From: Candidatus Omnitrophota bacterium
GTDB taxonomy: Bacteria; Omnitrophota; Gorgyraeia; Zapsychrales; Zapsychraceae
Direction of reading: 5' to 3'
Length of the DNA: 64,000 nucleotides
Assembly: GCA_020429915.1 (NCBI GenBank)
Contig: JAGQKV010000018.1
Span: 133,770 to 197,769, forward strand
Shown here: positions 3,068-57,347 of the stretch, in pieces
How positions within the stretch are numbered: position 1 is the stretch's first letter
Layout of the letters: every line of letters begins with the position of its first letter
The notes under the pieces: model-generated
Seen by the model: the letters and a program-made list of their open reading frames with translations, nothing else
What the model was told of the DNA's origin: nothing
Database searches by the model: none
Made by a program: the position numbers and the translations under genes

Positions 3068-3243
3068 GGCTTCTATCCTTTGTTTCAATGGTTATTAAGG
3101 GAAATCGCCCGCGGCGCCGGCAATGCCCTTAACACAAAAGCGCGGTCCGGATATTCAGTGTCCGTCCGCTGCCAAACATTGTACACAATTCATAGGGAAA
3201 TTTTAAGACCCGATTTTGTAAGGCACCGGCGTCCGGCTCCCGG

Positions 3244-35913: not shown

Positions 35914-37596
35914 TCAGGGTGACGGGGAATGAATAAATTTCCTGGTGACTTCGTCAATATGCGGCATGGTGTCCAGGTGTCCGTATTTATCCAGCAATCC
36001 CTGCAGTAATTCATGCGTGGTATAAAAGCGGCCGTACTCCGTGTACAGAATCTGCTGCGTCTCCACAATCAGGTTGGACACCTGGTACGGGCTGATGATC
36101 TCGGTATCCACCAGCCGGTCGATCATGGCCTCCATTTCCTTCACCAGCGGATGATCGCCGGGGAGCAGTTCCTCCTCGTCAATCACTGCCAATTGATAGG
36201 GCGCCGCGAAAAACTTACCCACGCTGCGGGGATAGATCCGGGTACTGGGTTGGTTCAGTCCCGTCGGATTAATCAATATCGGATAATACGGGCCGATCTC
36301 AGCGTGCGCGATGTTGAGTTCGGGATTGATGAATAGCGAAAACGGACGGCCGTTGGTGGAGGCGAACGAATTAACGCTGACCAACGGCGCATAAATTCCC
36401 TTGGCGGTGTAACGCTCGCGGATGTAGTTCGCGTACTCCAGGATCATGTCCGGGTGGTGATTCATGATCAGGTAGCTCCCGGGGTTAATTCCGGACAGCC
36501 GGGGCACCTCTTCGGTCTTTCCGGTGATGATGTCCGTGACAAAAAAATCGATATGTCCGACGTTGACCTGGGAAAGAATCCGCCAGCTGAAACGTTCACC
36601 CAGCATGTTCCATTGCACCGGTCCCGGGATGAGAAAATGCCGAAGCGGGATCATCACCTGCAGAAATAAATACACACAGAAAAAGGCCCACGCCGGGCCG
36701 GGCACCCGCGCATCCTTGGCCGGCGCCGGAGGCGTATACGCGGCCCTCCCGCCTTTCGCTCCCCCCAGGTGTCGAATCCAGACGGGATTGACAAACAGGG
36801 CGGCCGTACTGATCATCAAAAACGGTAATATCGTCATGTCCAGATAATACTTGATGCCGATGTTAAAGGCGATGAGAATAATGAGCGCCAGGGGCCGCAA
36901 CGCGCGGATTGTCAACATGACCGCCAAGCACATGTCCGCCAGCAGGCCGATCACAACCGTCGCAAACACAAAGGCGTCTCCGGCCCCGGTGAAAAGCGAC
37001 TGGGCGACACGGCCGCTGAGCCATTCCCCGTTGATGCGATTCAATGCGCTGAAAAAATAAACGATGACCACCTGAGACCGGAAGAGAAACAGCGTCCAGC
37101 CGGGCAATACCGGCGCCGAGCCCTTGCGAAACAGAAGCCGGTCGGCGGCCCAAAAAGGCCCGGGCCCGGTCACCGTAAACAGCAGCAGAAACAACAAAAT
37201 GAGATAGTCATGATGCGCGTAGACCGCTTTCTCCAGCAAGAAAAGGTATCCCGAAGTGAATAACAGGACAGCGGCGGCCGCTCGCGTGAACAGTCCGATC
37301 ACCAGCAAACCGGCACCCGCCAGCATGATCCGGTGAATGACCAGCAACATCCCTGCGGTCGGCACCGGCAGGTGCAGCCACTGTCGCAAAGGAAAGGAAA
37401 AATGAAAATCGGAAGACAGGTAAAAAAGATTGAGGATCGCCGGTGTCCGGTAAAAGCTGAAATAGCCGATGAGGACCAATCCGAATAAAATGCGGAACAG
37501 CCCCAAATTCAGCGGATCCACCGGAGTCATTAAGCGGCGGCGGAGGTCGCTCAGAAATTCGCTGAGTCCTTCTTCCCGGTTTACCGTTTGGCCCAT
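35914..37596 (-). CDS. HTTM domain (vitamin K-dependent gamma-carboxylase-like) membrane protein with an additional C-terminal domain
   Basis: 560 aa. The N-terminus ([20 protein letters not shown]) is the hallmark start of HTTM (horizontally transferred transmembrane) domains. Multiple TM helices are followed by a ~250 aa soluble C-domain. Confidence 0.65.
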
Positions 37597-37994
37597 AATC
37601 CCCTCTTGTGCTCCACCGCGTCGCGGTACAGCATTTCGAAAAGCTCATCATGCATGGTATTGGGCGGCGTGGACTTGGGCACCGCGTACCCGGCGTATAC
37701 CATGGTCGCGTTCAGATTGGTTTCGATCAAAAGCACGTAGGCCTGCCAGTTTCCCTGCGCGTCCTGCCGTTGTTCGTCGAATTCCAGTTTAACGCCCTTG
37801 CCCTCCACCAAATCCCGCAGAAAGCGGTCCGATTCGGCCTGATCCGTATCAATCCCGATCAGCGAGACCGTCTTGTTATTCGACAACAGCAGCGTGTGAC
37901 CGTTAATGACTTTATCGACGCGGAAGATATCCGCAGCCGCGGCGGTTTGAGCCAGCACGCCCATGGCGAACAGCATCAGGAGCAGGCGTTTCAT
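37581..37994 (-). CDS. Secreted thermonuclease (SNase-like) family protein
   Basis: 137 aa; signal peptide (MKRLLLMLFAMGVLAQTAAA); IGIDTDQAE is equivalent to the SNase GIDTPE site; C-terminal ...YVLLIETNLNATMVYAGYA...RGLW. Confidence 0.65.
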   Translation of the reverse strand: MKRLLLMLFAMGVLAQTAAAADIFRVDKVINGHTLLLSNNKTVSLIGIDTDQAESDRFLRDLVEGKGVKLEFDEQRQDAQGNWQAYVLLIETNLNATMVYAGYAVPKSTPPNTMHDELFEMLYRDAVEHKRGLWAKR

Positions 37995-39685: not shown

Positions 39686-39783
39686 CGAGTCATAATTACC
39701 TTCGTCCTGTTTACGGCCCCGCTGGGGTCGGGGTCCGATGGGGAATCCAACGTCACCGCGGCGCGCCGGCCGGCGGTGTGATG

Positions 39784-39857
39784 TGCGCCCGGGAGGATTC
39801 GAACCTCCAACCTTCTGTTCCGTAGACAGATGATCTATCCAATTGATCTACGGGCGC
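39784..39857 (-). tRNA. tRNA-Arg (anticodon ACG)
   Basis: Reverse complement: GCGCCCGtaGATCaattggataGATCaTCTGTctACGgaACAGAaggttGGAGGttcgaatCCTCCCGGGCGCa, a 74 nt cloverleaf with a 7 bp acceptor stem and anticodon loop CTACGGA. Confidence 0.85.
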
Positions 39858-40010: not shown

Positions 40011-43000
40011 TCACCAGAAGATCGCCTTGTTCTTGCGGTTCAAGACATGGGCGATGAGCTTCTTGCGCTGCGGTTTGACCCCGATCATGAAAATGGTGTG
40101 ATTGCGCAGCTTCAGATGCCCGAGCGTGGTCTGCTGATCCATAAAGTCGTAGCTGAGCCAATTCAACTGTTTGCGGTAACGTTGATTCTCCTCCGGCGAA
40201 TAAAATCTGAGTCCGCTGTAGCGGGCCAGGTTCAGCCCGGCCGAGGACTTTTCCCACTGCCGGCGCACAATGGTCAAAACCTTGGAGACCAGCCGCTTAT
40301 TGTGCAGTTTGGAGTGCAGGCTGACCGGACGCACCACGTATTGCCCGTCCGGGTACAACATGACGATGGTTTTCAGGTGATTGTTTCCGCCCACCGCGCG
40401 GATCGACTTGGCAAGGTCGGCGGCCCACTTCTTCTGATTGACGACGGTATCCAGGGTGGTCATATCAAAGAGAAACGCGACCTTGACTTCCTCCTCATGC
40501 ACGCGCGTGCGCACCATGGCCTCACCCGTGGTCGACCGGGCCGTAACGTTCCAGTCGATCATGCGGATGTCGTCGCCGGGGACGTATTTGTCCAGTCGGT
40601 CGAAATCACTACCCTGCTCCATTGCCTTGGCCAGCCGTGCCATGTCCATCCAGCGCCCGCCGTAGTTCAGCCGGGTATGGCCGAGTACCTTGTCAAGGAA
40701 GGCCATGACCCAGTCCTGGATCTGCTCGAAGTCAATGGCCGCCCGGTTCACCGACTCGACCACGGCGGGATCCCGCTGCTCGTACTCCTTCATGATCCGG
40801 TCCAGCTGATCGGAGAGCTTGTGCGTGGGGGTATTCGCCGGGCTTTGGGTGACCAGTTTGAGGATTTTGCGGTTATACTTCTCGCGCTCGGCAAACGGCC
40901 GCTGTTTCCAAAACAGCCATGGATGCCGGGCCAAATACGGCCCGAGAAACGGCAGATAGAACAGCAGCAGATGAAATTCGTTGCGGATCACCGATCGGTC
41001 CGGGATCGCCGGCGCCACGGCCAGTCCGGCATGGAACATAAACCGTTCGCGATTCGAAGACGTCAACCGGAACAGATCGATCTTGCGCTGGAACAATTCC
41101 CCTTTGTCGTAAGCGGAATCGTATATGGAATGGAGCAGCTCCTGTGCGGCATGCAGGTGGCGTTGTCCTCTACGCGCACCGCGGTCACTGGGCAGCGTCC
41201 GGAACATGCGGTCGATAATCTTTAAGGGCGGACGGCCCCGTGTCTTGTAGTTCCGGTACGGCGAAGCCAAGAAGTGAATCAGGACGGCTAACGCTTCAAA
41301 CAGGAAAAAGACGATGACAGCACGGATCAGGGCGGCCCGGCGCAGCGCCGCCGAATCATCGGCTGGCCCTTCCCCGTCCCGGATAAAACGCGGTCCGTCG
41401 CCGGTGGCGAACAATCCGGCCAACCCCGAAGTGACATCAATCACTTCCTTTTGCGGTGAACCGTGAACCCCGTAGACAATCTCTTCGGTATTGGTAAAGA
41501 CGGTGCGGTAACTGGCCGGTTCGGCCGTGATCAGGTATTTAGGCTGATTACGGCACATCAAGATCCCCAACTGCCGTAGTTGCTCATCGTTCAGGCCGTT
41601 CAACTGCATCCAAATCCAGTCGATCCGCTTCTTCTCGAACCGGTTGGTAATCAGCGGTTGATCAAAGCCTTTGACCTCATTCAGATAGGTAATCGTCCCG
41701 TTCAGGATCCCCTTGGCCGACTGGACATAACTGTCCCGCCGGTCCCCGTGTAGAATCAGTTTGAAAACATGCCGTTGCAAGTAATTCTTGGGATGATCGC
41801 TGAAAATCAGCGGGAATAACACGGCGTTGACCTCCACATTCGGAGGTACAGGCTGACCGGCGAATGTATACTGCATGTAATCCACGACATGTCCGAGCTC
41901 ATGCCAAGCGGTCCAGTACGGCCGGGTCGACAGCGAGGTAAACACGATCGCGAACTCCCCTTCGAAGAAACCGGCCTTACCCTTGAACGGATAATTCTCG
42001 CCGGACATGAAGTAGGCCTGCAGACGCTGATTGCTGATATCGTCGTACCAGAACGGATCCATCCCCAGCTTCTGAAGGTCTTCTTTCTTCAAGAGCATCG
42101 TCTTTTCAATCCGGTCCGGATACAGAAACACGTACGGTGTCGCCTCCCTGATCACCAGAAACAGATGCGGATAAACGTTGCCGCGTATCAAAAGCCGCCG
42201 CAGCTCCAGCATCTGCTCACGCAGGTCCGACTCCATGATATGCCGCTTCCGATACAAACCGTTGAGCGCCTCCAGCACGTTCAACATCTCCGGATCGACG
42301 AGAAAACCCGCGCGGTACATATCCCGTTGCATCTGGGGATCGGTCTGCCCCTTGGCCAGCAGGATCAAGTAATCTTTCAGGATAAAATCCGCCAGGATTT
42401 CATGCTTATTGGCACGGCGGTACAGACCGCCGTCGACAAAGTTGGCGAGTTTCTTCTGAAATTCCGGGACCGAGACATTGACGTCCGTGTTGATAATTTC
42501 ATTCTCAAAGTAAGCCATCTTTTCGTTGGCGTGCGGAATCATTTTGAAAACTTGGACGACGTCGTGCCACGCCCACTTCAGGTGGCGCATAATCACGCGG
42601 TTCCCTCCGGTAGCGTACATCGCGTTCACGAACAGGAAAGCCGCCACCGCGACCACGGTTACTGAAAGCAGCCGCCGGCGCTGTTGAATCTTTTCAAAAG
42701 AACGGACCTCGCCCAGCATGCCGCCTGCCTCTTCGCCTACTCCGTCCGGAGACCCGGATCGCAGCCTGGGCGTGTAGCCGTGCAGGATGTCACGAATGAA
42801 TTCCCGGATCTTGCGCAACAATGTACCCCTCTGGCCGGCATCAAAGTCCGCGACTTGCTTCTCGATTTCCTTGAGAGATGAGTGCGCATAAAGGATGGTG
42901 TTAAACAACTCCCGCAGGCGATGATGCTCGCGGCGGTACGTCCGTTTGATCAACCCGCGGATCCGCTCCATGTAAAGTTCCAGATAATCCAGACGCTGTT

Positions 43001-43499
43001 TGGGACTGACTTTTTGGTCCAGATACTTCAGGCGCAGGTCGAGCACGTGTCTCTGAAAGATCTCACCGGATTGCTCGTACACCGCGGCAAACGCGGCCGC
43101 CGCATGCTGTTGCAGCCGCCGTAGATACCATTTATGACGGATCTCGCGTCTGATCTCAAAGGTGGCGTCGTGATCGAGCCAGGCGCCCAGATACAGCAAC
43201 AAAATCTGGCGCGCGGCCTGATGCGTCCGGACGATTTCATCGTGGTATTCGACCAAGACATCGGGATATCCGCTGGGCAGGTTGGCGGCATGACGCTGTT
43301 GCCCGCGGACGAATCTGTCCAGGTGTCGAAAATCACGGTTAAGCCTTTTATAGAGACGCAGGGCCTCGCGAAAATCAGCGGGGTAAACGGTGAGGTGTTG
43401 TTTGTAGGCGATTTCGAGCCGGCGGATCCGCTTAATCGTCGTTAAACGGGATAGCGAGGCGCCCTGCTCGAGCACAAGATATTGGGTGGGGATCACCAT
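40011..43499 (-). CDS. Large membrane protein (1162 aa) fusing a HExxH metalloprotease-like region (WHELGHVVDY) to a C-terminal DUF58 domain
   Basis: C-terminal ~300 aa: RLDKYVPGDDIRMIDWNVTARSTTGEAMVRTRVHEEEVKVAFLFDMTT is the DUF58 signature (Y.PGDD.R.IDW..TAR). Upstream are a HELGH zincin motif flanked by hydrophobic helices (LLSVTVVAVAAFLFVNAMY; AALIRAVIVFFLFEALAVLIHFL) and a charged, probably coiled N-terminal region. Confidence 0.7.
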   Translation of the reverse strand: MVIPTQYLVLEQGASLSRLTTIKRIRRLEIAYKQHLTVYPADFREALRLYKRLNRDFRHLDRFVRGQQRHAANLPSGYPDVLVEYHDEIVRTHQAARQILLLYLGAWLDHDATFEIRREIRHKWYLRRLQQHAAAAFAAVYEQSGEIFQRHVLDLRLKYLDQKVSPKQRLDYLELYMERIRGLIKRTYRREHHRLRELFNTILYAHSSLKEIEKQVADFDAGQRGTLLRKIREFIRDILHGYTPRLRSGSPDGVGEEAGGMLGEVRSFEKIQQRRRLLSVTVVAVAAFLFVNAMYATGGNRVIMRHLKWAWHDVVQVFKMIPHANEKMAYFENEIINTDVNVSVPEFQKKLANFVDGGLYRRANKHEILADFILKDYLILLAKGQTDPQMQRDMYRAGFLVDPEMLNVLEALNGLYRKRHIMESDLREQMLELRRLLIRGNVYPHLFLVIREATPYVFLYPDRIEKTMLLKKEDLQKLGMDPFWYDDISNQRLQAYFMSGENYPFKGKAGFFEGEFAIVFTSLSTRPYWTAWHELGHVVDYMQYTFAGQPVPPNVEVNAVLFPLIFSDHPKNYLQRHVFKLILHGDRRDSYVQSAKGILNGTITYLNEVKGFDQPLITNRFEKKRIDWIWMQLNGLNDEQLRQLGILMCRNQPKYLITAEPASYRTVFTNTEEIVYGVHGSPQKEVIDVTSGLAGLFATGDGPRFIRDGEGPADDSAALRRAALIRAVIVFFLFEALAVLIHFLASPYRNYKTRGRPPLKIIDRMFRTLPSDRGARRGQRHLHAAQELLHSIYDSAYDKGELFQRKIDLFRLTSSNRERFMFHAGLAVAPAIPDRSVIRNEFHLLLFYLPFLGPYLARHPWLFWKQRPFAEREKYNRKILKLVTQSPANTPTHKLSDQLDRIMKEYEQRDPAVVESVNRAAIDFEQIQDWVMAFLDKVLGHTRLNYGGRWMDMARLAKAMEQGSDFDRLDKYVPGDDIRMIDWNVTARSTTGEAMVRTRVHEEEVKVAFLFDMTTLDTVVNQKKWAADLAKSIRAVGGNNHLKTIVMLYPDGQYVVRPVSLHSKLHNKRLVSKVLTIVRRQWEKSSAGLNLARYSGLRFYSPEENQRYRKQLNWLSYDFMDQQTTLGHLKLRNHTIFMIGVKPQRKKLIAHVLNRKNKAIFW

Positions 43500-43536
43500 G
43501 GCAGCTTTGGCCGGGGCTGCGGACCGGCGGCCGGCC

Positions 43537-44904
43537 TTAACGGTCGGCGCTCTTCAGCAGCTCGTTTCGGTCGAAGCCAAGTTGCTCGACGGCCTCATTA
43601 GGGTTCTCGGAGTAATGGCGGCAGAATGTGGAGACCTCCACCATGGTCGTCATCCCCTGCTCATCGAGATGCTTCAGCAGGAATGACCTCAGTAGATGCT
43701 CCTTCATGATATCCTTGGCCGTCAGTCCGGATTGTTGCGCCAGCCGGTCACGAAACACGGTACTCGGATTCATCTGCACCATTTTCTTGGAATCGTAGTC
43801 GAACTTGTACACTTGAGACAGCAGGATCTTAACCTGCTCCATCCCGCTGGTTTCGCTGACTTCGTCGACGACGCGAAACAGCCGGTCCCCGATGTGGTAT
43901 CGTTTCAGCACCACAAACACATCAATCAGGTTGACGAGCATCTCGGGGATGTTCATCGGTTCGTTTTGCAGACGAATAATGGCCTCGCGCGAGGTCAACG
44001 CGTGGATCGTCCCCATACAGTACTTTCCGATGTTACAGGCGGTGATCATATCGGTGGCCTCTTCCCCGCGGACCTCCCCGACGATAATCCGTTCGGGACG
44101 CATGCGCAGGCTGTTTTTAACAAGATCAGCCAGACTGATTTCATCATCACTCTCCAGGCGGGAACAGCTGTCTTCCATGAACGTATTCAGCTCCAACGTA
44201 TCCTCAATAACGACAATCCGGTGACCGTTGGGAATAAAACTCAGCAAGGCGTTCAGGATGGTCGTTTTGCCGACACCGGGACCCCCGGCGATAATCATGT
44301 TGGCCGGCCGGATATTCATCCCTTCCAGATACAGCCAAAGCTGGGCGGCGACCTCATGGCTCATCGCGCCGGTATGAATCAGGTCCATAATGCTCAGGGG
44401 CGTCACCTTGGCCTTGGTGATGGTCAGCTGCGGGCCGAACGGGGACAGCGCAATATTGACCCGACCTTCCAGATTGGGCAACTCGATATTGACGATCTTG
44501 GTCAAATGCTTCTTGTTGCAAAACATCAACAGCTTGCGTATGAACAGGTCAATCTCTTTCTGACTGCCGAACTTCTTGCCCGTGGAAACAAACCCTTTTT
44601 GACCGTGGTGTATGTAAATCGGTTTGAGGTTATTGATGACGATATCTTCCACAAAGCCGTCGCACAGCATATCGGTCAGAATTCCGTAGGATAGAAAATC
44701 CTTGATGAACGCGATCCGCTCCTCCGCCCGTTGGAGCCTTTCCTTCATATTCGGGAACTCATTGGCGTCCAGGATCCCCTGCAGCTCCTTCTCCACCAAA
44801 GCTTCCTTCTCCTCGGCAGGCTGCAACAGATTGATTTGACCCTGCAATTTCTCAACAAGGCGATACTCAAGTTCGATTCGATTGTCCCTAAATTCCGCAA
44901 GCGA
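43537..44904 (-). CDS. Secretion-superfamily ATPase, CpaF/TadA/FlaI (VirB11-like) type
   Basis: Start MSLAEFRD at 44902-44904, 10 nt after the M16 gene. Walker A IAGGPGVGKTTILNAL, Asp box / Walker B RIIVGEVRGEEA, His box GTIHAL. The first ~50 aa of the ORF track entry are antisense read-through and are excluded. Confidence 0.8.
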   Translation of the reverse strand, partial: SLAEFRDNRIELEYRLVEKLQGQINLLQPAEEKEALVEKELQGILDANEFPNMKERLQRAEERIAFIKDFLSYGILTDMLCDGFVEDIVINNLKPIYIHHGQKGFVSTGKKFGSQKEIDLFIRKLLMFCNKKHLTKIVNIELPNLEGRVNIALSPFGPQLTITKAKVTPLSIMDLIHTGAMSHEVAAQLWLYLEGMNIRPANMIIAGGPGVGKTTILNALLSFIPNGHRIVVIEDTLELNTFMEDSCSRLESDDEISLADLVKNSLRMRPERIIVGEVRGEEATDMITACNIGKYCMGTIHALTSREAIIRLQNEPMNIPEMLVNLIDVFVVLKRYHIGDRLFRVVDEVSETSGMEQVKILLSQVYKFDYDSKKMVQMNPSTVFRDRLAQQSGLTAKDIMKEHLLRSFLLKHLDEQGMTTMVEVSTFCRHYSENPNEAVEQLGFDRNELLKSADR

Positions 44905-44914
44905 CATAACGCAT

Positions 44915-47512
44915 CTACTCCTTATCCTTGGCGGGCCGGACGAACACCGACACCATGTTGTCGAAATCCAGATATTGACGGGCCATGGCCTGCACATCTT
45001 CCTGGGTAACCGCATCCACGAATTCGTCGTACCGGGTGTGGTAGTCATAACCGAGACCATAAAGCTCGTTCAGATTACTGCGCGAATTCTGCTGGGATAC
45101 GGTTTGCAGGCTGGAGGCATTGTCTCCCTTCAGATAGTGCTTGATGTCTTCAAGTTCGCCTTCCGGGACCACTTCATCCTTCATCCGTTGCAACTCCTCG
45201 CGGACCAGCTTTTCCACGTCTTCGAGACTTTCCGCGTCCGTTATCACATAAAAATAGATGTACCCGGCATCCATCGTGGCCGAGACGTTTCCGCCCAGGG
45301 TATAGGCCTTTCCGTACACATTCCTGACCTTGGTAAAGAGACGGCCGCTGAACGACGATCCGAGGATAGAGGTCATCACATCGATTTTATAGTAATCGGG
45401 ATGCATGAAACCGACCGCTCGGAAACCGAACTGAACGATAGCCTGCTCCTTTTCCAAGTTCAGGTTGATCCGCTTTTCACCGGCCGGAGGGGCCAGCTCG
45501 GTCATCGCGGGCATATACTCGCCGCCTTCCATCTTGCCGAAGTCTTTCCGGATCTTTTCCGTCACGGCCTCGGCATCGATATCACCGAACACGCTGATGA
45601 CCATGTCGCGCGGGGTCAGGATCTTGCGGTAGAAGGCTGTGACATCGTCGCGGGTGATCCGCGGCAGGGACTCGGGAGTACCGGCGCCATCGAGACGGAT
45701 CGGATTTCGAGAAAATAAATTCTGTTTCAAATGAAAGTTCGATAACCGGAATATCTCCTTATCCCGCTGCTTGAGATGCACCAGCAGATTCTGCCGCTGC
45801 AGATCAATTTCCTTTTGCGGGAAAGTGGGATTGAAAGTCACGTCGCGCAACAAGTCGAGACACAGATCCCAGTCGCGGCTCAGGCAGTCGACATAGACTC
45901 CGTTACTGGTCCGCCCGGAGCTGCCGCTCAGGCTGATTCCGCGAGAATCTTTCAGTTCCGCCAGGGCCTGCGCGGAACGGGATTTTGTCTCCTTGGCCCA
46001 CGCCGTGGCCATGATATTGGACAGACCGGAAAGTTCTTCCGGCTCTTCATTCACGCCGCCGCGAATATTCATCCGGACCGTCACGACCTCAAACTGCGGA
46101 TTCTCCAGCGTGAGCAAGGTGATACCGTTGGGCAACACTTCCCGATGGATTTGCTGCAATACGGCATCGGATTGGGTGGCGGATTTCTCCGGCCGGCTGG
46201 AATTGGGCCGCAGGATGCAAATGGATTCGGTTTGCGGCTTGAGGTATTCATTAGCCACCCGCTTGATATCGGCGGTGGTGACATCCTCAATACCCTTGAC
46301 ATAATTCGCCGTGAAGGCCGGATCTCCCGTGAAGGCCTCGTCGTAGGCCATGAACCAAGCGACCCGTTGCGTGGTCTGGTTGCCGAAAATGAAATCGCTG
46401 AGCACCTGGGTCTGGGCCTTCGCCAATTCGTCCGCGGTAATTCCCTTGGCCTTGATGCGCGCGATGTGGTCGCGAATCCCTTCTATGACCTCTTCCACGT
46501 TGTCTTCGTCTTCCAATGTGGCGGTAATATCGAAGACCCCCTTGTCCACCGGGGTATAGTTGCCGGCGCTGATCCATGAGACCAGGGTCCGATCCTTGAA
46601 CAGATCTTTGTACAACCGTGAACTTTCACCTTCACCAAGCACTTGGGCCAAGACGTCCAGCGCGTATACATCGTGGTTCAGCATGCGTACCGACGGGTAC
46701 GCGACGGTCAAACGGGTGACGTCCGTCTCGAAGTACTCCTCAACACGCCGGGGCGCGACCTGGTCGGGTTCCTGCGGCAGATTGCGGACCAAATACGGTT
46801 TACGCGGATAATCTTTCAGCTTCTCTTCTATCATCGGCATGATTTCTTCAGCCTTGACGTTTCCGGCAATCGCCAGGACCATATTGTTAATGAAGTAGCG
46901 GGACTTGTAATATTCCCACATCTCATCGCGGGAAATCTGCGCCAGCAGGTCTTTGTAACCGATGATCGGATGATAATACGGATGAACGGTAAACATGGTC
47001 TCATAAACCATGCGGGTGAGTCTGCGTTGGGGCCGGTCATTGATCAGCCTCATTTCATTGAAGACGACTTCACGTTCCTTGGCCACTTCCTCCGGATCAA
47101 GAACAGAGTTCAGGACCATATCCGTAACCACATCAAGACCGGTCTCGAACTCCGTATAGGGAACATTGATCGTATAGATCGTAAAGTCCATGCTGGTCGA
47201 GGCGTTGAGACTGCCGCCCACGGCCTGGATTTCCGCGGGAATCTGCCCGACGCCGCGCTTCTCCGTCCCCTTAAAAAGCATATGCTCCAGGAAATGCGAT
47301 AACCCGGTGCCCAGAAACTTATCTTCGGTAGCCGAACCCGCCTTGACCAGCACATAGACCGAGACCATGGGATTGTTCGGCATCTCCTGGATGACGACGG
47401 TCAAGCCGTTGCTTTTCAGGACGCGTTTGGTAATGTGGGGCTCATAGGCATCGCCGACGCGGGGAACACATAACAGGATCAGCACAGCGGCGGCGGAAAG
47501 AAATTTCTTCAT
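44915..47512 (-). CDS. Secreted tandem M16 (pitrilysin/insulinase) family zinc peptidase
   Basis: 865 aa; signal peptide MKKFLSAAAVLILLCVPRVGDA; inverted zincin motif HFLEH...E in the first M16 unit; a second, inactive-looking M16 unit follows in the same polypeptide. Confidence 0.85.
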   Translation of the reverse strand: MKKFLSAAAVLILLCVPRVGDAYEPHITKRVLKSNGLTVVIQEMPNNPMVSVYVLVKAGSATEDKFLGTGLSHFLEHMLFKGTEKRGVGQIPAEIQAVGGSLNASTSMDFTIYTINVPYTEFETGLDVVTDMVLNSVLDPEEVAKEREVVFNEMRLINDRPQRRLTRMVYETMFTVHPYYHPIIGYKDLLAQISRDEMWEYYKSRYFINNMVLAIAGNVKAEEIMPMIEEKLKDYPRKPYLVRNLPQEPDQVAPRRVEEYFETDVTRLTVAYPSVRMLNHDVYALDVLAQVLGEGESSRLYKDLFKDRTLVSWISAGNYTPVDKGVFDITATLEDEDNVEEVIEGIRDHIARIKAKGITADELAKAQTQVLSDFIFGNQTTQRVAWFMAYDEAFTGDPAFTANYVKGIEDVTTADIKRVANEYLKPQTESICILRPNSSRPEKSATQSDAVLQQIHREVLPNGITLLTLENPQFEVVTVRMNIRGGVNEEPEELSGLSNIMATAWAKETKSRSAQALAELKDSRGISLSGSSGRTSNGVYVDCLSRDWDLCLDLLRDVTFNPTFPQKEIDLQRQNLLVHLKQRDKEIFRLSNFHLKQNLFSRNPIRLDGAGTPESLPRITRDDVTAFYRKILTPRDMVISVFGDIDAEAVTEKIRKDFGKMEGGEYMPAMTELAPPAGEKRINLNLEKEQAIVQFGFRAVGFMHPDYYKIDVMTSILGSSFSGRLFTKVRNVYGKAYTLGGNVSATMDAGYIYFYVITDAESLEDVEKLVREELQRMKDEVVPEGELEDIKHYLKGDNASSLQTVSQQNSRSNLNELYGLGYDYHTRYDEFVDAVTQEDVQAMARQYLDFDNMVSVFVRPAKDKE

Positions 47513-47527
47513 GAAGGATTCCTTTGT

Positions 47528-48061
47528 TTAGGGATGGTCATCTTTGAAGCGCTCCAGCAGTTTGCGGATGTCGATGTCGGCATTGCGCGCAACCTGCGTG
47601 CAGGTAAAAATAAGGACGGAAAAAGGCCAATACTCTTCCGATCCCTTGATCAGGCCGGTCGATACATTTTCCTGCCGGCTGAGTTCATTCTGAAAATGCT
47701 TGGCGGCTTTGCTTAAATCGCCTTCGAAAACGGATATCGACTGGGTACGGTTGTCGTAACGGAATGACGGGATGCTGACCCCGCGAATCAGCAGAAAATT
47801 GACCATGGCATTCTGATTGAAGGCGTTCAGCTGATCGAATTCAAAACCCTCGAACTGGGGATTATTGGGCGGCAGGATGAGCGACGGTTTGTCGACCTTG
47901 ACTTCTCCGGTGCGAACGACGGTATCACCGACATTAATGGACGATTCAGCCAGCAGCACATACGGCACGGAAGTCGCTGTGGCCGTCGGCAATGCAGCCA
48001 CGCGGGCACGGATGATCTCGGTCTCTTTGAGAGCGGCATTCCAGGCTTTTTCCAGATCCAT
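47528..48061 (-). CDS. Hypothetical protein (~177 aa), first gene of the M16 / ATPase / DUF58 string
   Basis: ATG at 48059-48061 (MDLEKAW...) with AAAGGA upstream. No TM and no family recognised. A 15 nt gap separates it from the M16 gene. Confidence 0.45.
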   Translation of the reverse strand: MDLEKAWNAALKETEIIRARVAALPTATATSVPYVLLAESSINVGDTVVRTGEVKVDKPSLILPPNNPQFEGFEFDQLNAFNQNAMVNFLLIRGVSIPSFRYDNRTQSISVFEGDLSKAAKHFQNELSRQENVSTGLIKGSEEYWPFSVLIFTCTQVARNADIDIRKLLERFKDDHP

Positions 48062-48239
48062 ATCTTCAAATCCTTTCACCGCAAGCGGATATATTAATAT
48101 ACACGATTGGGCGGTAGTTGCAAGAATATTCCGCTACGGGGGGGAGAATATCGTTGCATTGCAGGTGCTTGTGTGATATTCTTGATTTCTTCATCGATAG
48201 CGGACTGGCTGTCCGGTCCCCATTCAAAGCTACATATCA

Positions 48240-48328
48240 GGAGAGATGGCCGAGCGGTTGAAGGCGCACGCTTGGAAAGCGTGTGGTCATTGAAAAATGG
48301 CTCCAGGGTTCGAATCCCTGTCTCTCCG
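48240..48328 (+). tRNA. tRNA-Ser (anticodon GGA), type II
   Basis: GGAGAGAtgGCCGAGCGGTTGAAGGCgcACGCTTGGAAAGCGTgtGGTCATTGAAAAATGGCTCCAGGGTTCGAATCCCTGTCTCTCCg; acceptor stem GGAGAGA/TCTCTCC; anticodon loop TTGGAAA; long extra arm. Confidence 0.85.
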
Positions 48329-48538: not shown

Positions 48539-50044
48539 CTAAGGGTTATAGGCGGGCGAAACGGGGGCGTTGGTGCTCAAGGCCGTCCGTGCGGTATTTT
48601 CACCTGTAATAATGGTCGGGGTGAGAAATATGGCGATCTCATTCTGCGTTTCTTCGGTTTCTTCACTGCCGAACGTTCGGCCGATGACCGGGATATCACC
48701 CAAATACGGGATCTGTTTTTTGGTGTGAATAGTATCTTCTTTGATAAGTCCGCCGATGACAATCGTGACTCCGTCTTTAACCGTAACGGTAGTCTCGGCC
48801 TCCGTCGTCTCTACGACCGGAATGACATTGTTATTGCTCGTTATGAGCGACCGGGTTACAGAACTCACTTCCGGTTTGATCTGCAGAGTCACATAGTCAT
48901 CTTTATGGATCGTCGGCGTCACCAACAATTTCACGCCGACTTCGATAAACTCTACCGACTCCGATGAAGTCGTCGGTCCGGCCGAGGGCGTGGTCGTTGT
49001 GGTGGTCACGTACGGTTCGGTTGAACCCACTAAAATTTTGGCCTCCCGGTTATTAAGAGCTACGATGCTCGGGCTGGACAGAATTCGGGTATCACCGATC
49101 GTTTCCAGGGCCTCGACGGTTGCCTCGTATTCGTCACTGGAGAGCGTACCGATGCGCAGCCGGCCGCTCTTATCGTTGCTTTTGATCACGTCAAAATCGC
49201 CACTGACGGTAAGATCATGTAAATCCTGCACCAAGCCTGTCCAATCCACACCGAGTTTGAATTCATCTCCCAGATTGACCTGCACGATCTTGGCCTCGAC
49301 CAGGACCTCCCGGTCCTTTTTATCGAAGGCGGCAATAATACGCCCGGCTTCGGCGATTTTGGCCGGCATGTCGGAAACAACCAGGGTATTTGATCTCGTA
49401 TCCTTGCGGATGGTTCCAAACTCTGGAGTCAGCACCTGACTTATTTCGCTGAGAATTTTGTCGGCATCGGCATAAGCGAGCTCGAAAACTTCGGTGGCAG
49501 GCGGCTTATCAACCCCCCTGATAATCTCCTCCATTGATGCCACCGCGTCAGGGGTGTCCATTAAAATAAGACTGCGGGAACTTTCGGACGGCATGATCTT
49601 GCCTGATTCGGTTTTGACCTTCTCCAGGATCTTAACCAACTCGTCCAGGTTCATAAACTCGACCGACCGAACCTTTAATACGGTTTCGGGTCCGTACGGG
49701 TAGCCGAACTTATTGGCAAACTCCTGTTTGGTCATAACCTTAACGACGTCTTCCTCCGTGGCGTATGCCCACCCGTTGGTGTCGACAATCATGCTTAAGG
49801 CCTGCATGGCGTCGACGTCTGTGAGATAAATATTCACTTCGCCTTGCACTTCCCTGCTGGCAATAATATTGCGGCCGCTTTTCTTGGAGAGTAATTTCAG
49901 GACGTCGTGGACGCCCAAACTGCGGATGTCGAGAATTTCGATATGGCTTGGAGAAACAGGTTGACCGGATGCAGGTGCGCCCCAGACGGATCCGGCACCA
50001 CATAAACCGTTCACAATGGCAATCGTCGCAAGAAATTTCTTCAT
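48539..50044 (-). CDS. Secretin (GspD/PilQ family outer-membrane channel)
   Basis: ~500 aa with a signal peptide, N-domains and the C-terminal secretin domain (VLVEAKIVQVNLGDEFKLGVDW...; TRILSSPSIVALNNREAKILVGSTEPY...; IPYLGDIPVIGRTF). There is a Thr-rich linker. Confidence 0.85.
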   Translation of the reverse strand: MKKFLATIAIVNGLCGAGSVWGAPASGQPVSPSHIEILDIRSLGVHDVLKLLSKKSGRNIIASREVQGEVNIYLTDVDAMQALSMIVDTNGWAYATEEDVVKVMTKQEFANKFGYPYGPETVLKVRSVEFMNLDELVKILEKVKTESGKIMPSESSRSLILMDTPDAVASMEEIIRGVDKPPATEVFELAYADADKILSEISQVLTPEFGTIRKDTRSNTLVVSDMPAKIAEAGRIIAAFDKKDREVLVEAKIVQVNLGDEFKLGVDWTGLVQDLHDLTVSGDFDVIKSNDKSGRLRIGTLSSDEYEATVEALETIGDTRILSSPSIVALNNREAKILVGSTEPYVTTTTTTPSAGPTTSSESVEFIEVGVKLLVTPTIHKDDYVTLQIKPEVSSVTRSLITSNNNVIPVVETTEAETTVTVKDGVTIVIGGLIKEDTIHTKKQIPYLGDIPVIGRTFGSEETEETQNEIAIFLTPTIITGENTARTALSTNAPVSPAYNP

Positions 50045-50049
50045 GAAAA

Positions 50050-50694
50050 TCACCGGGTCAGTTCCGTGATCCGTCCGCCGCTTTCGAAAATGACCTTCTC
50101 CGGACGTATTTCCTTCACCATGATCCCGTCAATATGTTCACCCACGTGGACCGTGTATGTTTGTTTGCTGCGCCGGTCTTCCAGCACAGCGTTGGAATCA
50201 GCACCGATCATCAGACCGAGAATCCGGAAACGGTCATGGACTACGACAGGCGGTTGCGTGACACGCACGGGTGGAGTCGAAAGCCGTAATGGGAAATCCG
50301 GCACTACTTGCTCCGGCAATACAGATTCATAAGCCGGCACGCGGCTGTTTTCTTTCCGGGCCGGGGCCTCGACTGTTCGGGTGACCTTCGGTACCGGCAT
50401 GACCGCCGCCATTTCCGGCACAGGATTCGCTTCCTCCGTAGGCGCCGGAGGAGATCTGTAGGCAGATTTTTGCATATTGTAAACCAGCGTCGGCCCCGCA
50501 GCCAATGCAATGCCGAGCAATACCAGCATCATCCATGCCACAGGCCAGGATTTCTGAACCGCCGCTGCGGATTTGACCGTGAATTCCTTCACGGTTACCG
50601 GTTCTGCCACACTGCCGTGCGCATCCAAGTAGGAACGATCGCTGTTGCGGATCAGATTTAACAAGCGCTCTTCAGAAGTTTCGGCTGATAGCAT
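50050..50694 (-). CDS. GspB/ExeB-like (or GspC-like) bitopic secretion-system protein
   Basis: 214 aa: a cytoplasmic N-terminus, one TM (WMMLVLLGIALAAGPTLVY), a Pro-rich linker and a C-terminal beta domain (RILGLMIGADSNAVLEDRRSKQTYTVHVGEHIDGIMVKEIRPEKVIFESGGRITEL). It overlaps the ExeA-like gene. Confidence 0.55.
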   Translation of the reverse strand: MLSAETSEERLLNLIRNSDRSYLDAHGSVAEPVTVKEFTVKSAAAVQKSWPVAWMMLVLLGIALAAGPTLVYNMQKSAYRSPPAPTEEANPVPEMAAVMPVPKVTRTVEAPARKENSRVPAYESVLPEQVVPDFPLRLSTPPVRVTQPPVVVHDRFRILGLMIGADSNAVLEDRRSKQTYTVHVGEHIDGIMVKEIRPEKVIFESGGRITELTR

Positions 50695-51538
50695 GCTGTC
50701 CCCAAATTTTATCCTGATCGATGATCCTGTTAATCAATGTACTGGAGACGCCTTCACACCGGTTTGTCAGGACATACTCCATCACCCGGTGACACACACG
50801 GGCGATCTGCCGCGGGTAACCCTTGGTATGGCGATGAATGCGTCGCACAGCGGAGCGGTCAAACAGTTCGTGAGATGCCTGATAGCCGGCCTGCTTCAAG
50901 CGAAAGTGAATAAGCGCGCCTGTTTCGAATTCATTCAAAGGTTCGAGCAGGCAGGTGTCAACGATCCGGTCGACAAAATTCGGCATCTTGCGGACGACCG
51001 GCAGGATCTCCAATTGCGAAAGAATGACCACTTGCAACATCTTGTACTCGTTAGTCTCATAATTCAGCAGTACCCGCAGGATTTCCAACTGGCCGGCCGT
51101 GAGCTTCTGTCCTTCATCAATAATTAATATGACCGTCTTTTGTTCGTCGACAGCCTTGCGGTAAAGATAGTGAACGATTGCTTCTTTGGCTTCCTGCAGA
51201 CTGGCAAACGGGACCGACATGTTGAACAGCCGCGCCAAATAGGCGATGAATTCGCCATCGTCGGCAAATTGCGGATCAAGAATCACATGAAATATGTAAT
51301 CCCGTTCCCGGTGAAAAGAGGTCACCAGCGAACGCCACAATGTGGTTTTGCCGGTCCCGATATCTCCCAGGAGCAAGGTCAGCCCCCGCCTCAGGCGAAT
51401 GTTGATTTCCAGACGGATCTTGGCACTTAGATGGCCCGGGGAATGATAAAAAAAAGCGGGATCCGGACTTGTGGAAAACGGTTCCTTGGTCAGTTCGAGT
51501 GGGGTATAAATGTTCATTTGGGCAATGATTCCGGTCAA
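50672..51538 (-). CDS. ExeA/GspA-like AAA ATPase
   Basis: TTG start at 51538 (the ATG alternative at 51517 gives MNIYTPLEL...). N-terminal LTKEPFSTSPDP...FYHS is characteristic of ExeA; Walker A GDIGTGKTTL; Walker B VILIIDEGQ. There is no periplasmic peptidoglycan-binding extension. Confidence 0.7.
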   Translation of the reverse strand: MTGIIAQMNIYTPLELTKEPFSTSPDPAFFYHSPGHLSAKIRLEINIRLRRGLTLLLGDIGTGKTTLWRSLVTSFHRERDYIFHVILDPQFADDGEFIAYLARLFNMSVPFASLQEAKEAIVHYLYRKAVDEQKTVILIIDEGQKLTAGQLEILRVLLNYETNEYKMLQVVILSQLEILPVVRKMPNFVDRIVDTCLLEPLNEFETGALIHFRLKQAGYQASHELFDRSAVRRIHRHTKGYPRQIARVCHRVMEYVLTNRCEGVSSTLINRIIDQDKIWGQHAISRNF

Positions 51539-51627
51539 TACCGACTTGTTATTTTATTTTTATATAGCGACCGGACAGTGTCAAGACAATACCGCAATAT
51601 CTGCGATCTATCTCGGTCGAAATTTGA

Positions 51628-52089
51628 TCACAAACGAAGTTCCACCGTGCGCTGACCGTCACTGAGAAGCACCCGCTCGGGTGAGATCTCGGTAACGGCA
51701 AATCCTTCGACCTGTCCGTTGAGAACAACCTCTTCTCCGTTGATGACCGCCACAGCATTGTCCGGATTAACCATTACCGCGTTTAAGCGGAGTTCGGGCA
51801 AGGGCTTCGGCTGCGGCTCCGGAACGGGACGTCGCCGCACGACCACATCCACCGGCTGCCGAAAGGGATCTCGCCCCCATCCTCCGGACGAGTCGAGTTG
51901 CGGAGCACTGCCTTGAAGCTGTTGATAGCGGGCCATAAGATCCCGCACTCCGGTATGCTGCGCAGAAGCCTTCTTCTTGCGATCCGTACGACCGGGGGCC
52001 GTACCTGTAGAAAAATTTTGAGACCATACGTATACCGCGACAAGTATCAATACGGGAAAAATAGCCTTTAAAAGAGTCTGTCTATTCAT
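51628..52089 (-). CDS. PilP/GspC-like pilot/assembly lipoprotein-type protein
   Basis: 153 aa: N-terminal TM/signal, a Pro-rich spacer and a C-terminal beta-domain (LRLNAVMVNPDNAVAVINGEEVVLNGQVEGFAVTEISPERVLLSDGQRTVELRL), the classic PilP fold pattern. Confidence 0.55.
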   Translation of the reverse strand: MNRQTLLKAIFPVLILVAVYVWSQNFSTGTAPGRTDRKKKASAQHTGVRDLMARYQQLQGSAPQLDSSGGWGRDPFRQPVDVVVRRRPVPEPQPKPLPELRLNAVMVNPDNAVAVINGEEVVLNGQVEGFAVTEISPERVLLSDGQRTVELRL

Positions 52090-52603
52090 TCGTTTCTGTC
52101 TCTGTATAAATATGCAGAGTCACACGCGCGTTGATGGAGTTTCGTTCTTGCGGTGTCGCCGACATGCGAATTTCCTCCACGCTGATGAGGGCGCGCGGAT
52201 ACGTTTGAATCGCACCCAGGAATTCACCGGCGGCCGGAAAATCGGCGGTAAACGTCAGGACGACCGGTTTTCGTGCGTATCCCTGCGCGCGCAACGCTCC
52301 TTGGAAATCCACCGCCGACAACGCAATTTCGTTACGGACAGCCATTGCCGAGAGATCATCGACAACGGAGGATAAGGCCGAAGCCGGCAGCAGGGCGGCG
52401 ATGTGCTCCTTCAGTTTGCCATCGGCCGCGGCGGCCTTCAGGCCGGCGGTATCTGCCCGCAGCCCATGCGTTTTTTCCCGCAGTACCGTTGTCTCACGGA
52501 CGGCATTCGTCGCCATGGTCCCCAGCAACAGACAGCCGGCCATCCCGACAGCCAAGAGACCCGTCCACATGGTTTTGCCGGATGTGACGGGCGTTTGGTT
52601 CAT
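52082..52603 (-). CDS. PilO/GspM-like inner-membrane assembly protein
   Basis: 173 aa: one N-terminal TM, a coiled segment, then a ferredoxin-like C-domain; position and size are typical. Confidence 0.55.
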   Translation of the reverse strand: MNQTPVTSGKTMWTGLLAVGMAGCLLLGTMATNAVRETTVLREKTHGLRADTAGLKAAAADGKLKEHIAALLPASALSSVVDDLSAMAVRNEIALSAVDFQGALRAQGYARKPVVLTFTADFPAAGEFLGAIQTYPRALISVEEIRMSATPQERNSINARVTLHIYTETETNE

Positions 52604-54192: not shown

Positions 54193-54203
54193 GCAATCAC
54201 CTT

Positions 54204-54674
54204 TTATAATTCGCGCCACGTCGCGGGCACGGGATCCACTATATTGGGAGTTCCCAAGGTTAGCGTGACCACCTGCTGGACCGTTCTGTTTAACAGGCCG
54301 ACCTCACCGCGTGCGGTGATCACAACCTGACTGCCCGAACTCTCCACCCACAGAGTGTAAGTCCCGTCCGCGAGTGTTTCTTCCTGCGGATCGGTCACGC
54401 CCGGACCGGAGACCGCGGGATAAGCGGCGGTCCGCCATGATCCATCGGTGGATCCGTCGGGCGCGGCATGGATGAGGTACCACACCGCCCGGTTCACGCC
54501 GGCCTCGGCCAGGTACAGGGCCTGTTCAGAAGCATACCTGTCGCTGTTCCACCGCGTTTGCCAACGGACCATGACCAGGTACGTAGACAGAATCACTGTC
54601 AACCCTACGAGTATGATGACCGTGACCACCAACACGGCTCCTCGTTGCCGTCGGAGAGCGTCGCGCCTCATCAT
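54204..54674 (-). CDS. Minor pseudopilin, GspK/PilX-like (short)
   Basis: 156 aa; N-terminal QRGAVLVVTVIILVGLTVILS hydrophobic segment without the Glu5 typical of GspK-type pseudopilins; unusually short for GspK. Confidence 0.5.
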   Translation of the reverse strand: MMRRDALRRQRGAVLVVTVIILVGLTVILSTYLVMVRWQTRWNSDRYASEQALYLAEAGVNRAVWYLIHAAPDGSTDGSWRTAAYPAVSGPGVTDPQEETLADGTYTLWVESSGSQVVITARGEVGLLNRTVQQVVTLTLGTPNIVDPVPATWREL

Positions 54675-55195: not shown

Positions 55196-55203
55196 GCCCT
55201 CCC

Positions 55204-55590: not shown

Positions 55591-55598
55591 GACACAAC

Positions 55599-56063: not shown

Positions 56064-56098
56064 ATTCGACTCCTTTCCTTTGTCACATACGAGCCTAC

Positions 56099-57337: not shown

Positions 57338-57347
57338 CGTCGTGAAA

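Follow-up and report, generated by a model that had tools for sequence, protein, structure and literature searches.

Few domains of unknown function are as widespread as DUF58, and DUF58 proteins normally adjoin a gene for a MoxR ATPase. Among the closest described systems are the MoxR (AAA_3)–DUF58–vWA operons, namely the Bat operon of Bacteroides, moxR1-Rv1480-Rv1481 of mycobacteria, and BB0170-BB0176 of Borrelia. To our knowledge, the targets of MoxR–vWA pairs are mostly unknown. Proteins that contain DUF2201_N (PF13203, a putative metallopeptidase) and the VWA-like DUF2201 are encoded near AAA_5 ATPases. MoxR–vWA pairs have been described as chaperone/co-chaperone systems for the assembly of complexes, and the effector domains of the vWA–MoxR ternary conflict systems include a metallopeptidase "on rare occasions" (Kaur, Burroughs, Iyer, Aravind 2020; PMC7159879).

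The locus described here contains a DUF58 protein of a different build. It is part of a window of 64 kb, which is the whole stretch of DNA that was analyzed, and comprises the following features:

39783–39857, minus strand: tRNA-Arg(ACG) (ARAGORN), which marks the ancestral right-hand neighbor of the ATPase gene
40011–43499, minus strand: gene for the 1162-aa fusion protein with two TM helices (open reading frame, family, dN/dS, AF2 model)
40014–40622, minus strand: DUF58 (vWA-like) domain, aa 960–1162 (Pfam PF01882, 1.9e-10)
40623–41255, minus strand: helical linker, aa 749–959 (invariant columns in the family)
41256–41342, minus strand: TM helix 2, about aa 716–748, the coordinates covering aa 720–748 (hydropathy; strong K+R excess after it)
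41508–42494, minus strand: uncatalogued zincin-like domain, aa 336–664 (AF2 domain model; the same domain in very large AAA_5/VWA proteins)
41832–41834, minus strand: E556, candidate third zinc ligand, 19 residues past H537 (invariant together with N554)
41889–41903, minus strand: HELGH, aa 533–537, candidate zinc-binding/catalytic motif (translation; invariant in 21 of 21 members)
42606–42677, minus strand: TM helix 1, aa 275–298 (hydropathy; 21 of 21 family members)
42678–43499, minus strand: N-terminal all-helical region, aa 1–274 (AF2 secondary structure, domain-wise identity, K+R bias)
43537–44907, minus strand: FlaI/CpaF/TadA-class secretion ATPase, 456 aa (Pfam T2SSE, PF00437, 102.6 bits)
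44915–47512, minus strand: secreted tandem M16 peptidase, 865 aa (Pfam M16 and M16_C, each twice)
47528–48061, minus strand: small protein of about 177 aa (homologues in L095–L099)
48240–48328, plus strand: tRNA-Ser(GGA) (ARAGORN), which separates the three preceding genes from a T2SS/T4P-like cluster

The 1162-residue gene is genuine, and it encodes a zinc-protease-like domain and DUF58 in one protein. The domain order is N-terminal helical region, TM1, zincin-like domain, TM2, helical linker, and C-terminal DUF58, and the AF2 model of the full-length protein has a mean pLDDT of 76. The open reading frame, the HELGH motif, and the DUF58 C-terminus had been seen in a preliminary description, and all three were recovered. 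Pfam PF01882 matches aa 971–1058 with 40.7 bits, compared to a cut-off of 23.4, and it also matches 17 of the 21 members of the fusion family. In the AF2 model strands and helices alternate at aa 968–1161 (pLDDT about 62–87), the structure yielded no significant match, and D977 and D982 are invariant in this region of the family. The linker carries the invariant hydrophobic motif FxxxFxxPxxGPxxxR (aa 843–858), and its invariant columns are H843, F847, P850, G853, P854, R858, Q866, and F869. The dN/dS value of the gene versus L001 is 0.05, similar to the value of 0.06 for the M16 gene, and the reading frame is unbroken in every member of the window clade. The low dN/dS shows that the fusion gene is functional and under strong purifying selection.

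The TM helices were called with a Kyte-Doolittle threshold. The protein had been described as polytopic, but only two hydrophobic helices exceed the threshold, and both are kept in 21 of 21 members. The number of K+R residues drops from 78 on the N-terminal side of TM1 to 47 on its C-terminal side, and it rises from 43 to 97 across TM2. The members of the family are thus predicted to be two-TM inner-membrane proteins with a cytoplasmic C-terminal DUF58 domain; the N-terminal region is likewise predicted to be on the cytoplasmic side, and the zincin-like domain probably faces the periplasm. In the very large relatives described below no TM helices are found directly beside the HExxH domain, so that it shares the compartment of the AAA+ and VWA domains, which is awkward for a periplasmic location in the window protein. 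The soluble stretch between the two helices has a length of about 420 residues and carries the HELGH motif, which is about 180–235 residues away from either helix. The earlier placement of the motif between hydrophobic membrane helices, as in an M48/M56-like membrane protease, therefore had to be given up; in addition, neither the M48 nor the M56 model matched the 1162-aa protein at E <= 1.

The AF2 model of the zincin-like domain (pLDDT 93.2, pTM 0.90) contains a beta-sheet, followed by the HExxH helix and by a Glu ahead of the next helix, which is the order of gluzincins. HELGH is located on helix 527–547, and E556 immediately precedes helix 557–566. All 21 family members, whose identity to the window protein is 24–54%, share H533, E534, H537, N554, and E556 without exception, and HExxH was found in 29 of the 29 further carriers of the domain that were checked; because of this conservation, HExxH is no chance motif. 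A HExxH on a helix and a downstream Glu as candidate third ligand, the features by which gluzincins are recognized, are both present with all residues invariant. Based on sequence and model, the domain thus appears to be gluzincin-like, with the Glu 19 residues after the HExxH. It is not contained in the catalogues that were searched: no Pfam, NCBIfam, or PADLOC model covers the HExxH–DUF58 fusion, and Foldseek retrieved nothing significant with the domain (best E = 0.09). Significant sequence or fold similarity to a recognized peptidase family was not found.

One alternative keeps the architecture and the MoxR-class partner, but takes the HExxH domain not as a protease but as a metal-binding or peptide-holding module, and the protein would then be a cofactor-insertion or assembly chaperone like NorQ/NorD, CoxD/CoxE, or the chelatases. 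This would agree with the fact that none of the peptidase-family HMMs matches the domain, with its internal position in the very large proteins, where it is flanked by AAA_5 and VWA as a linker or adaptor would be, and with the view of MoxR–vWA pairs as complex-assembly chaperones (PMC7159879). However, the invariance of HExxH includes its catalytic Glu and is not limited to the two His ligands. In addition, many entries of the weak Foldseek list, in which no hit is significant, are true zincin peptidases (M48, M3, M2, M49, M1, anthrax lethal factor), and the sole PDB sequence-profile match is the active site of the M3 oligopeptidase A (E = 0.83). A non-proteolytic domain is considered rather unlikely.

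The fusion of a conserved HExxH domain to DUF58 is thus real, and it is rare, with 68 representatives among 1.84 billion; the fusion family comprises about 25 full-length representatives. The distant full-length relatives have about 30% identity to the window protein. A MoxR (AAA_3) gene was found 12–26 nt downstream of the fusion gene in L005, L006, L085, L089, and L090, which are all distant fusion loci with downstream DNA (five of five). The preliminary description had named homologous fusions with a MoxR as an observation that would speak against a novel system, and such a pairing was present in the relatives at all five informative loci. At the distant loci tblastn did not reveal the FlaI-like ATPase, the M16 peptidase, or the small gene of the window, and no FlaI/CpaF-like ATPase or M16 gene was found within 10 kb. 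In the window the DUF58 gene has no AAA_3 or AAA_5 gene at its side. The previously noted absence of MoxR was confirmed for the complete 64 kb, for which tblastn with two MoxR queries gave nothing better than E=2.3, and Pfam scans of the larger open reading frames also revealed none.

Metagenomic proteins of very large size, about 2,000–7,600 aa, contain the HExxH domain as well. The order AAA_5, HExxH domain, and VWA was observed in P0040, P0046, P0049, P0051, and P0057, P0068 contains AAA_5 followed by the HExxH domain, and P0030 and P0034 combine the HExxH domain with DUF58. Judged from sequence, the natural partner of the fusion family and of the very large relatives is a MoxR-class AAA+ ATPase.

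The three genes upstream of the fusion gene, which encode the small protein, the tandem M16 peptidase, and the FlaI/CpaF-like ATPase, form a triad that is conserved across Omnitrophota. The ATPase had been assigned to the CpaF/TadA/VirB11 family, in accordance with its T2SSE domain and its intact nucleotide-binding motifs, i.e., Walker A (GPGVGKT), Asp box, Walker B (IIVGEVR), and His box. It has 5593 homologues, and the identity is about 70% across Omnitrophota. Similarity to CpaF/TadA and archaeal FlaI/GspE2 extends over the full length, with archaeal GspE (2oap) as the closest PDB sequence match, together with FlaI and CpaF (1e-47 to 1e-37). In contrast to these proteins, it is conserved beside a secreted M16 peptidase, and it stays below the cut-off of the FlaI equivalog model (212.9 bits, cut-off 550); the TadA-family model gave 134.7 bits against 373. 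Genes for a T2SSF platform protein (TadB/TadC, FlaJ), a pilin, or a prepilin peptidase are missing next to the ATPase gene, both in the window and in L095–L099. The ATPase could thus not be assigned to a Tad pilus or an archaellum, as the flanking genes are absent and the equivalog scores are below the cut-off. A longer version of the ATPase reading frame (507 aa) runs into the M16 gene, but it results from an in-frame ATG further upstream and is artefactual. The T2SS/T4P-like cluster had been placed at a distance of 5 kb; in fact, the distance between the small gene and the end of the secretin gene of the cluster at 48539 is 460 bp, and the opposite-strand tRNA-Ser is located in this gap.

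The M16 peptidase has a signal-like N-terminal sequence and contains M16 and M16_C twice, as had been proposed. Peptidase_M16, M16_C, and HxxEH, the hallmarks of the M16 (pitrilysin/insulinase) family, are all present, the motif being HFLEH in unit 1 only, while unit 2 has no HxxEH. The gene is kept upstream of the ATPase gene in L095–L099. The small hypothetical gene of the preliminary description is present at the upstream end, and it most likely starts at 48061 and encodes 177 aa, in agreement with the gene calls in L001 and L003. Its homologues in L095–L099 are at the same position and 52–70% identical. Searches of Pfam and NCBIfam gave no match for the protein, and none to PDB sequences was significant. 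No description of an association of a small protein, a secreted tandem M16 peptidase, and an orphan FlaI/CpaF-like ATPase was found.

A comparison of gene orders suggests how the fusion gene came to its present neighbors. L096 and L097 have the order hypothetical gene–M16–ATPase–tRNA-Arg(ACG)–PAS kinase–deaminase without a fusion gene, and L095 also has the triad but no fusion gene. The fusion gene follows the ATPase gene in the window, L001–L004, L098, and L099, and it is itself followed by tRNA-Arg(ACG) in the window and L001–L003, where the sequence continues and was scanned. A fusion gene between ATPase and tRNA-Arg, and thus next to a CpaF-like ATPase, is found in the window clade only. 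The four genes had been proposed to form a proteolytic processing or export module. They are not one system, because the triad occurs without the fusion gene beside ATPase orthologues of about 70% identity, and because the relatives of the fusion pair with MoxR; the proposed module is a lineage-specific juxtaposition of two unrelated units. The whole arrangement is probably best explained by two independent units that adjoin each other, i.e., the triad and the 1162-aa MoxR-type fusion gene. The fusion is a new zincin-like form of the MoxR–vWA/DUF58 theme and no new secretion or processing system.

The missing MoxR gene in the window and the lack of a significant peptidase match count against this explanation, and so do two further observations. 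First, only 37 nt separate the ATPase stop from the fusion start on the same strand, and this arrangement is kept clade-wide. Second, the DUF58 domain is the slowest-evolving part of the fusion protein within the window clade, with an identity of 79% versus 54% for the zincin-like domain, whereas in the MoxR-linked relatives the values are 43% and 51%; the unusual conservation hints at a change of constraint. The latter two could be explained by a partner swap, in which the FlaI/CpaF-like ATPase replaced MoxR as the energizing partner of the DUF58/zincin protein in the window clade and formed a clade-specific processing or export module with the M16 peptidase and the small protein. The 37-nt gap contains no terminator-like site, all clade members seen have the same gene order, even where the fusion identity falls to 47–54%, and a MoxR gene is missing from the window, all of which would fit. 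If true, this would combine two ATPase worlds in an unprecedented way, and the zincin-like protease, which spans the membrane, would be driven by the secretion ATPase and act together with the secreted M16 peptidase. However, the triad is unchanged without the fusion gene across Omnitrophota, and the relatives of the fusion adjoin MoxR and no FlaI/CpaF-like ATPase. The most variable part of the fusion protein is the N-terminal region, but it is homologous between MoxR-linked and window-clade members, and thus no clade-specific new domain was gained. Furthermore, CpaF/TadA, FlaI, and GspE are known from type IV filament and secretion machineries, we know of no description of these ATPases together with vWA/DUF58 proteins, and synteny in one clade may be mere inheritance. 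A partner swap is therefore regarded as improbable.

Lastly, the preliminary description had reckoned with a coincidental HELGH if all metallopeptidase models failed; all curated models did fail and no MoxR gene is adjacent, but a chance motif, or a decaying remnant stranded without MoxR, is effectively refuted by the invariance of the motif, the clade-wide intact reading frame, and purifying selection like that on the M16 gene.

With two independent units, the following mode of action can be envisaged for the fusion family. A cytoplasmic MoxR hexamer would engage the DUF58 domain and remodel it using ATP, the change would be relayed via the linker and the TM helices, and it might switch or mature the metalloprotease-like domain across the membrane. 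In the window clade the fusion gene would have been placed between the triad ATPase gene and tRNA-Arg, without an adjoining MoxR. As it is under strong purifying selection there, the protein most likely works together with a MoxR whose gene lies at another genomic site.

The C-terminal DUF58 is common to the fusion and the MoxR–DUF58–vWA operons, and the adjacent MoxR AAA_3 gene is shared by the distant members, but is absent in the window. In contrast to these operons, the fusion has about 950 additional N-terminal residues with two TM helices and the zincin-like domain, MoxR is encoded downstream of its relatives and not upstream, and no BatA/BatB-type vWA genes were seen beside the fusion in L006. 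The vWA–MoxR ternary systems also combine a MoxR AAA+ ATPase with a vWA-type protein that bears a peptidase domain (PMC7159879). However, no VMAP, iSTAND, or FtsH third component was seen with the fusion, its peptidase-like domain is N-terminal and not C-terminal to vWA/DUF58, and it is membrane-embedded and without a PADLOC match. The DUF2201_N/DUF2201 proteins likewise have a HExxH domain before a vWA-like domain and an association with MoxR-class ATPases, but they are small and soluble, in contrast to the large membrane protein, and PF13203 matched neither the window protein nor any of 19 domain sequences at E <= 1. Midasin/Rea1-type proteins have an AAA_5 ring and a MIDAS/vWA domain, and the very large relatives similarly have AAA_5 followed by a C-terminal VWA; however, these are prokaryotic and have the HExxH domain between the last detected AAA_5 and VWA, and the window protein represents a split form without an AAA domain.

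Taken together, the association that is conserved across Omnitrophota is the triad and not the four-gene set, which corrects the record. Gene neighborhood and protein fusion both link a conserved HExxH…E domain to DUF58/VWA and MoxR-class ATPases, and the new domain family annotates part of otherwise unannotated very large metagenomic proteins. For one MoxR–DUF58 system it offers a testable output, namely an ATP-controlled metalloprotease-like module that possibly signals across the membrane.

The gene that fuses a HExxH domain to a C-terminal DUF58 domain (the fusion gene) and the three genes upstream of it (the triad) had been proposed in the preliminary description to form one proteolytic processing or export module without MoxR. 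The four genes are:

47528-48061/48079, (-): small gene, 177 aa by the gene calls of close relatives (L001, L003)
44915-47512, (-): secreted tandem M16 peptidase, 865 aa; Pfam M16 and M16_C, each twice
43537-44907, (-): FlaI/CpaF-like ATPase, 456 aa; Pfam T2SSE
40011-43499, (-): fusion gene, 1162 aa; Pfam DUF58

As had been described, DUF58 forms the C-terminus of the 1162-aa protein; it was the sole Pfam match (aa 971-1058, 40.7 bits, cut-off 23.4), and MoxR was indeed not found within the 64-kb window. The ATPase was nearest to FlaI, TadA, TrbB and VirB11 in NCBIfam, with every score below the model cut-off, and its top PDB sequence matches were archaeal GspE (2oap), FlaI and CpaF. A 507-aa version of its ORF, overlapping the M16 gene, was rejected as the product of an upstream in-frame ATG, because the relatives are called at 456 aa. 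The small protein had neither a Pfam match nor a sequence relative in the PDB. A description of the HExxH domain or of its DUF58 fusion was not found in the literature, and in PADLOC the fusion protein likewise had no match and the ATPase had weak P-loop matches only. In comparison with L001 the dN/dS value of the fusion gene was 0.05, showing that the gene is functional; the value of the M16 gene was similar (0.06).

A word-indexed search with the fusion protein yielded six close homologues only (54-100% identity, one labelled Candidatus Omnitrophica), and a search with a 21-sequence family alignment (members 24-54% identical to the window protein) added nothing to these six. A profile of the N-terminal 950 residues, searched exhaustively against 1.84 billion proteins, detected 68 representatives. 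About 25 of these are full-length (1130-1224 aa), and another 30 or so are very large (2,000-7,600 aa) and align over aa ~335-690 only. No relative was found in the viral contigs that were scanned. The candidate active site is conserved: H533, E534, H537, N554 and E556 are invariant in the 21 sequences, as are the preceding segment G-F-E-G and the DUF58 motif residues D977, D982, W983, T986 and R988. The HELGH motif was verified at exactly aa 533-537, and it is no coincidence, because HExxH is present in all 29 further proteins that carry the domain.

The M48/M56 models suggested for a check gave no match, and no other peptidase model of Pfam or NCBIfam matched any member of the fusion family. 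The window does encode a true M48 peptidase (2111-3088(-), 135.8 bits), but this gene lies in another part and has no relation to the HELGH domain. An AlphaFold2 model of the domain (aa 336-664, 19-sequence alignment) had a pLDDT of 93.2 and a pTM of 0.90. In this model a helical subdomain is followed by a beta-sheet, the long HExxH helix, and a second helix that begins just past E556. In gluzincins the element order is that of thermolysin-like enzymes, and the modelled order of the domain matches it. Foldseek with the domain model retrieved nothing significant from the PDB (top match ZMPSTE24, E = 0.09), but many of the weak matches were zincin peptidases (M3, M2, M49, M1, anthrax lethal factor); the lone PDB sequence match of the domain profile was the active site of the M3 oligopeptidase A (E = 0.83). 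The model of the complete 1162-aa protein gave no informative Foldseek matches. Based on the modelled order and the weak zincin matches, and because no peptidase match was significant, the domain is classified as zincin-like, outside every recognised peptidase family.

The protein had been described as polytopic, but hydropathy revealed two transmembrane helices only (about aa 275-298 and 716-748), both of which are kept in 21 of 21 aligned family members. Consequently, the HELGH motif is indeed flanked by hydrophobic helices, but it lies within a soluble domain of about 420 residues and not in a polytopic membrane core. The family sums of K+R were 78 before and 47 after the first helix, and 43 before and 97 after the second, from which an N-in, loop-out, C-in topology is predicted, with the zincin-like domain in the periplasm. 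This predicted location is in tension with the very large relatives, in which the HExxH domain has no directly flanking transmembrane helices and is in the same compartment as the AAA+ and VWA domains. The linker, predicted to be cytoplasmic, contains the hydrophobic, Pro/Gly-rich motif FHLLLFYLPFLGPYLAR (window 40926-40976, aa 842-858), which is invariant across the fusion family and may enter the membrane as a re-entrant segment or lie at its surface. Should the motif cross the membrane, DUF58 would be on the side opposite to that predicted.

The neighbourhood of distant relatives was analyzed in genome contigs and metagenomes. One of the two patterns of the genome-contig scan was the DUF58 motif, so that ordinary DUF58 genes dominated its output and only two of its 80 loci held a true relative; the scan was repeated on metagenomes with a domain-only alignment. 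Both scans together gave seven distant loci whose fusion homologue is complete or almost so. Downstream DNA is available for five of them (L005, L006, L085, L089, L090), and in each a 331-aa MoxR gene begins 12-26 nt past the fusion gene; for L006 it matched AAA_3 (208 bits) and AAA_lid_2. Homologues of the window ATPase, M16 or small gene were not detected by tblastn in the distant loci. Domain fusions gave the same picture: the Pfam order AAA_5, HExxH domain, VWA was constant in the proteins P0040, P0046, P0049, P0051 and P0057, AAA_5 precedes the HExxH domain in P0068, and P0030 and P0034 combine it with DUF58. Thus, both gene neighbourhood and domain fusion tie the HExxH domain to vWA/DUF58 and a MoxR-class AAA+ ATPase, a canonical partnership (reviewed in PMC7159879). 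Very large metagenome proteins with the domain (2,000-7,600 aa) include P0031, P0033, P0037, P0040, P0046, P0049 and P0050, and further carriers are encoded in L092 (116-12313, 4065 aa) and L094 (332-13327, 4331 aa). Where tested, their order AAA_5, domain, VWA is similar to midasin, but the carriers have a protease-like insert.

The triad was found to be conserved without the fusion gene. The ATPase had 5593 homologues; the best 120 of these are 65-100% identical, annotated as CpaF, TadA or FlaI, and, where an organism label is given, from Omnitrophota. In L095-L097 (ATPase about 70% identical) the small gene (52-61%) and the tandem M16 gene (43-47%) are kept upstream. L096 and L097 have no fusion gene; tRNA-Arg(ACG) and the genes of a PAS histidine kinase and a deaminase directly follow the ATPase gene there, the same three that the window has behind its fusion gene. 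The fusion gene follows the ATPase gene only in orthologues at least 80% identical (L001-L004, L098, L099, together with the window called the window clade), and in those scanned further downstream (window, L001-L003) tRNA-Arg comes next. Thus, the conserved block is the older arrangement, into which the fusion gene was inserted in a single clade. A search around this gene revealed no flanking direct or inverted repeats and, therefore, no insertion scar. The proposed four-gene module is not supported, since the triad occurs without the fusion gene and distant fusions pair with MoxR. The triad (window 43537-48079(-), L095-L099) is a separate unit, and it is the one actually conserved across Omnitrophota. 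Its ATPase is an orphan, as no platform, pilin or prepilin-peptidase genes were found beside it in the window and L095-L099. The triad was not found described in the literature.

Further window genes were annotated. The ORF at 35914-37596(-) encodes a bacterial homologue of vitamin K-dependent gamma-carboxylase (HTTM and VKGC lumenal domain). The adjoining 137-aa ORF (37581-37994(-)) is staphylococcal-nuclease-like by synteny with L001, and the pair is kept in the clade (L001, L002, L098, L099). A 1886-aa ORF (7265-12925(-)) has a single receiver-domain match (aa 591-665), the remainder being unannotated.

For the fusion protein of the window clade, a change of partner to the secretion ATPase was also considered. 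Between the window protein and the homologous protein P0005 the identity was 31% for the N-terminus, 54% for the zincin-like domain and 79% for DUF58; for the equally divergent, MoxR-linked L005 and L085 the values were 30%, 51% and 43%. Within the window clade DUF58 (aa 960-1162, nt 40014-40622) is 79-97% identical, whereas the rest diverges to 31-54%, and it is by far the slowest-evolving part, which is not so in the MoxR-linked relatives. In addition, the ATPase and fusion genes are separated by only 37 nt without a terminator-like site; a promoter and terminator scan yielded no more sites than in shuffled sequence. The slow evolution of DUF58 and the short spacing keep this partnership alive, albeit at a low probability. 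A T2SSF-like platform role of the N-terminal helical region was rejected, because no T2SSF match was obtained and the MoxR-linked members have a homologous N-terminus.

Membership of the triad in the neighbouring secretion cluster was rejected as well:

48539-58967, (-): complete T2SS/T4P-like cluster (GspE, GspF, pseudopilins, PilM, PilO, AAA_22, secretin)
57348-58967, (-): GspE with MshEN domain
48539-50053, (-): secretin

This cluster, which includes four pseudopilins, a PilM-like protein and an AAA_22 protein (ExeA/MshM-like), ends 460 bp from the small gene and not 5 kb away, as had been noted. However, it has its own GspE and GspF, tRNA-Ser(GGA) lies in between on the opposite strand, and no such cluster precedes the triad in L095-L099. 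The adjacency is local, because the upstream context of the triad varies among all compared loci. T2SS-like loci upstream of giant genes have been described in Omnitrophota (preprint 10.1101/2023.11.21.568195).

Taken together, the fusion protein varies the MoxR–vWA/DUF58 theme in a new way, and a new kind of secretion or processing system is rejected. In this variant, a MoxR hexamer would remodel the cytoplasmic DUF58 domain, and the remodelling may control or mature the metalloprotease-like domain across the membrane.
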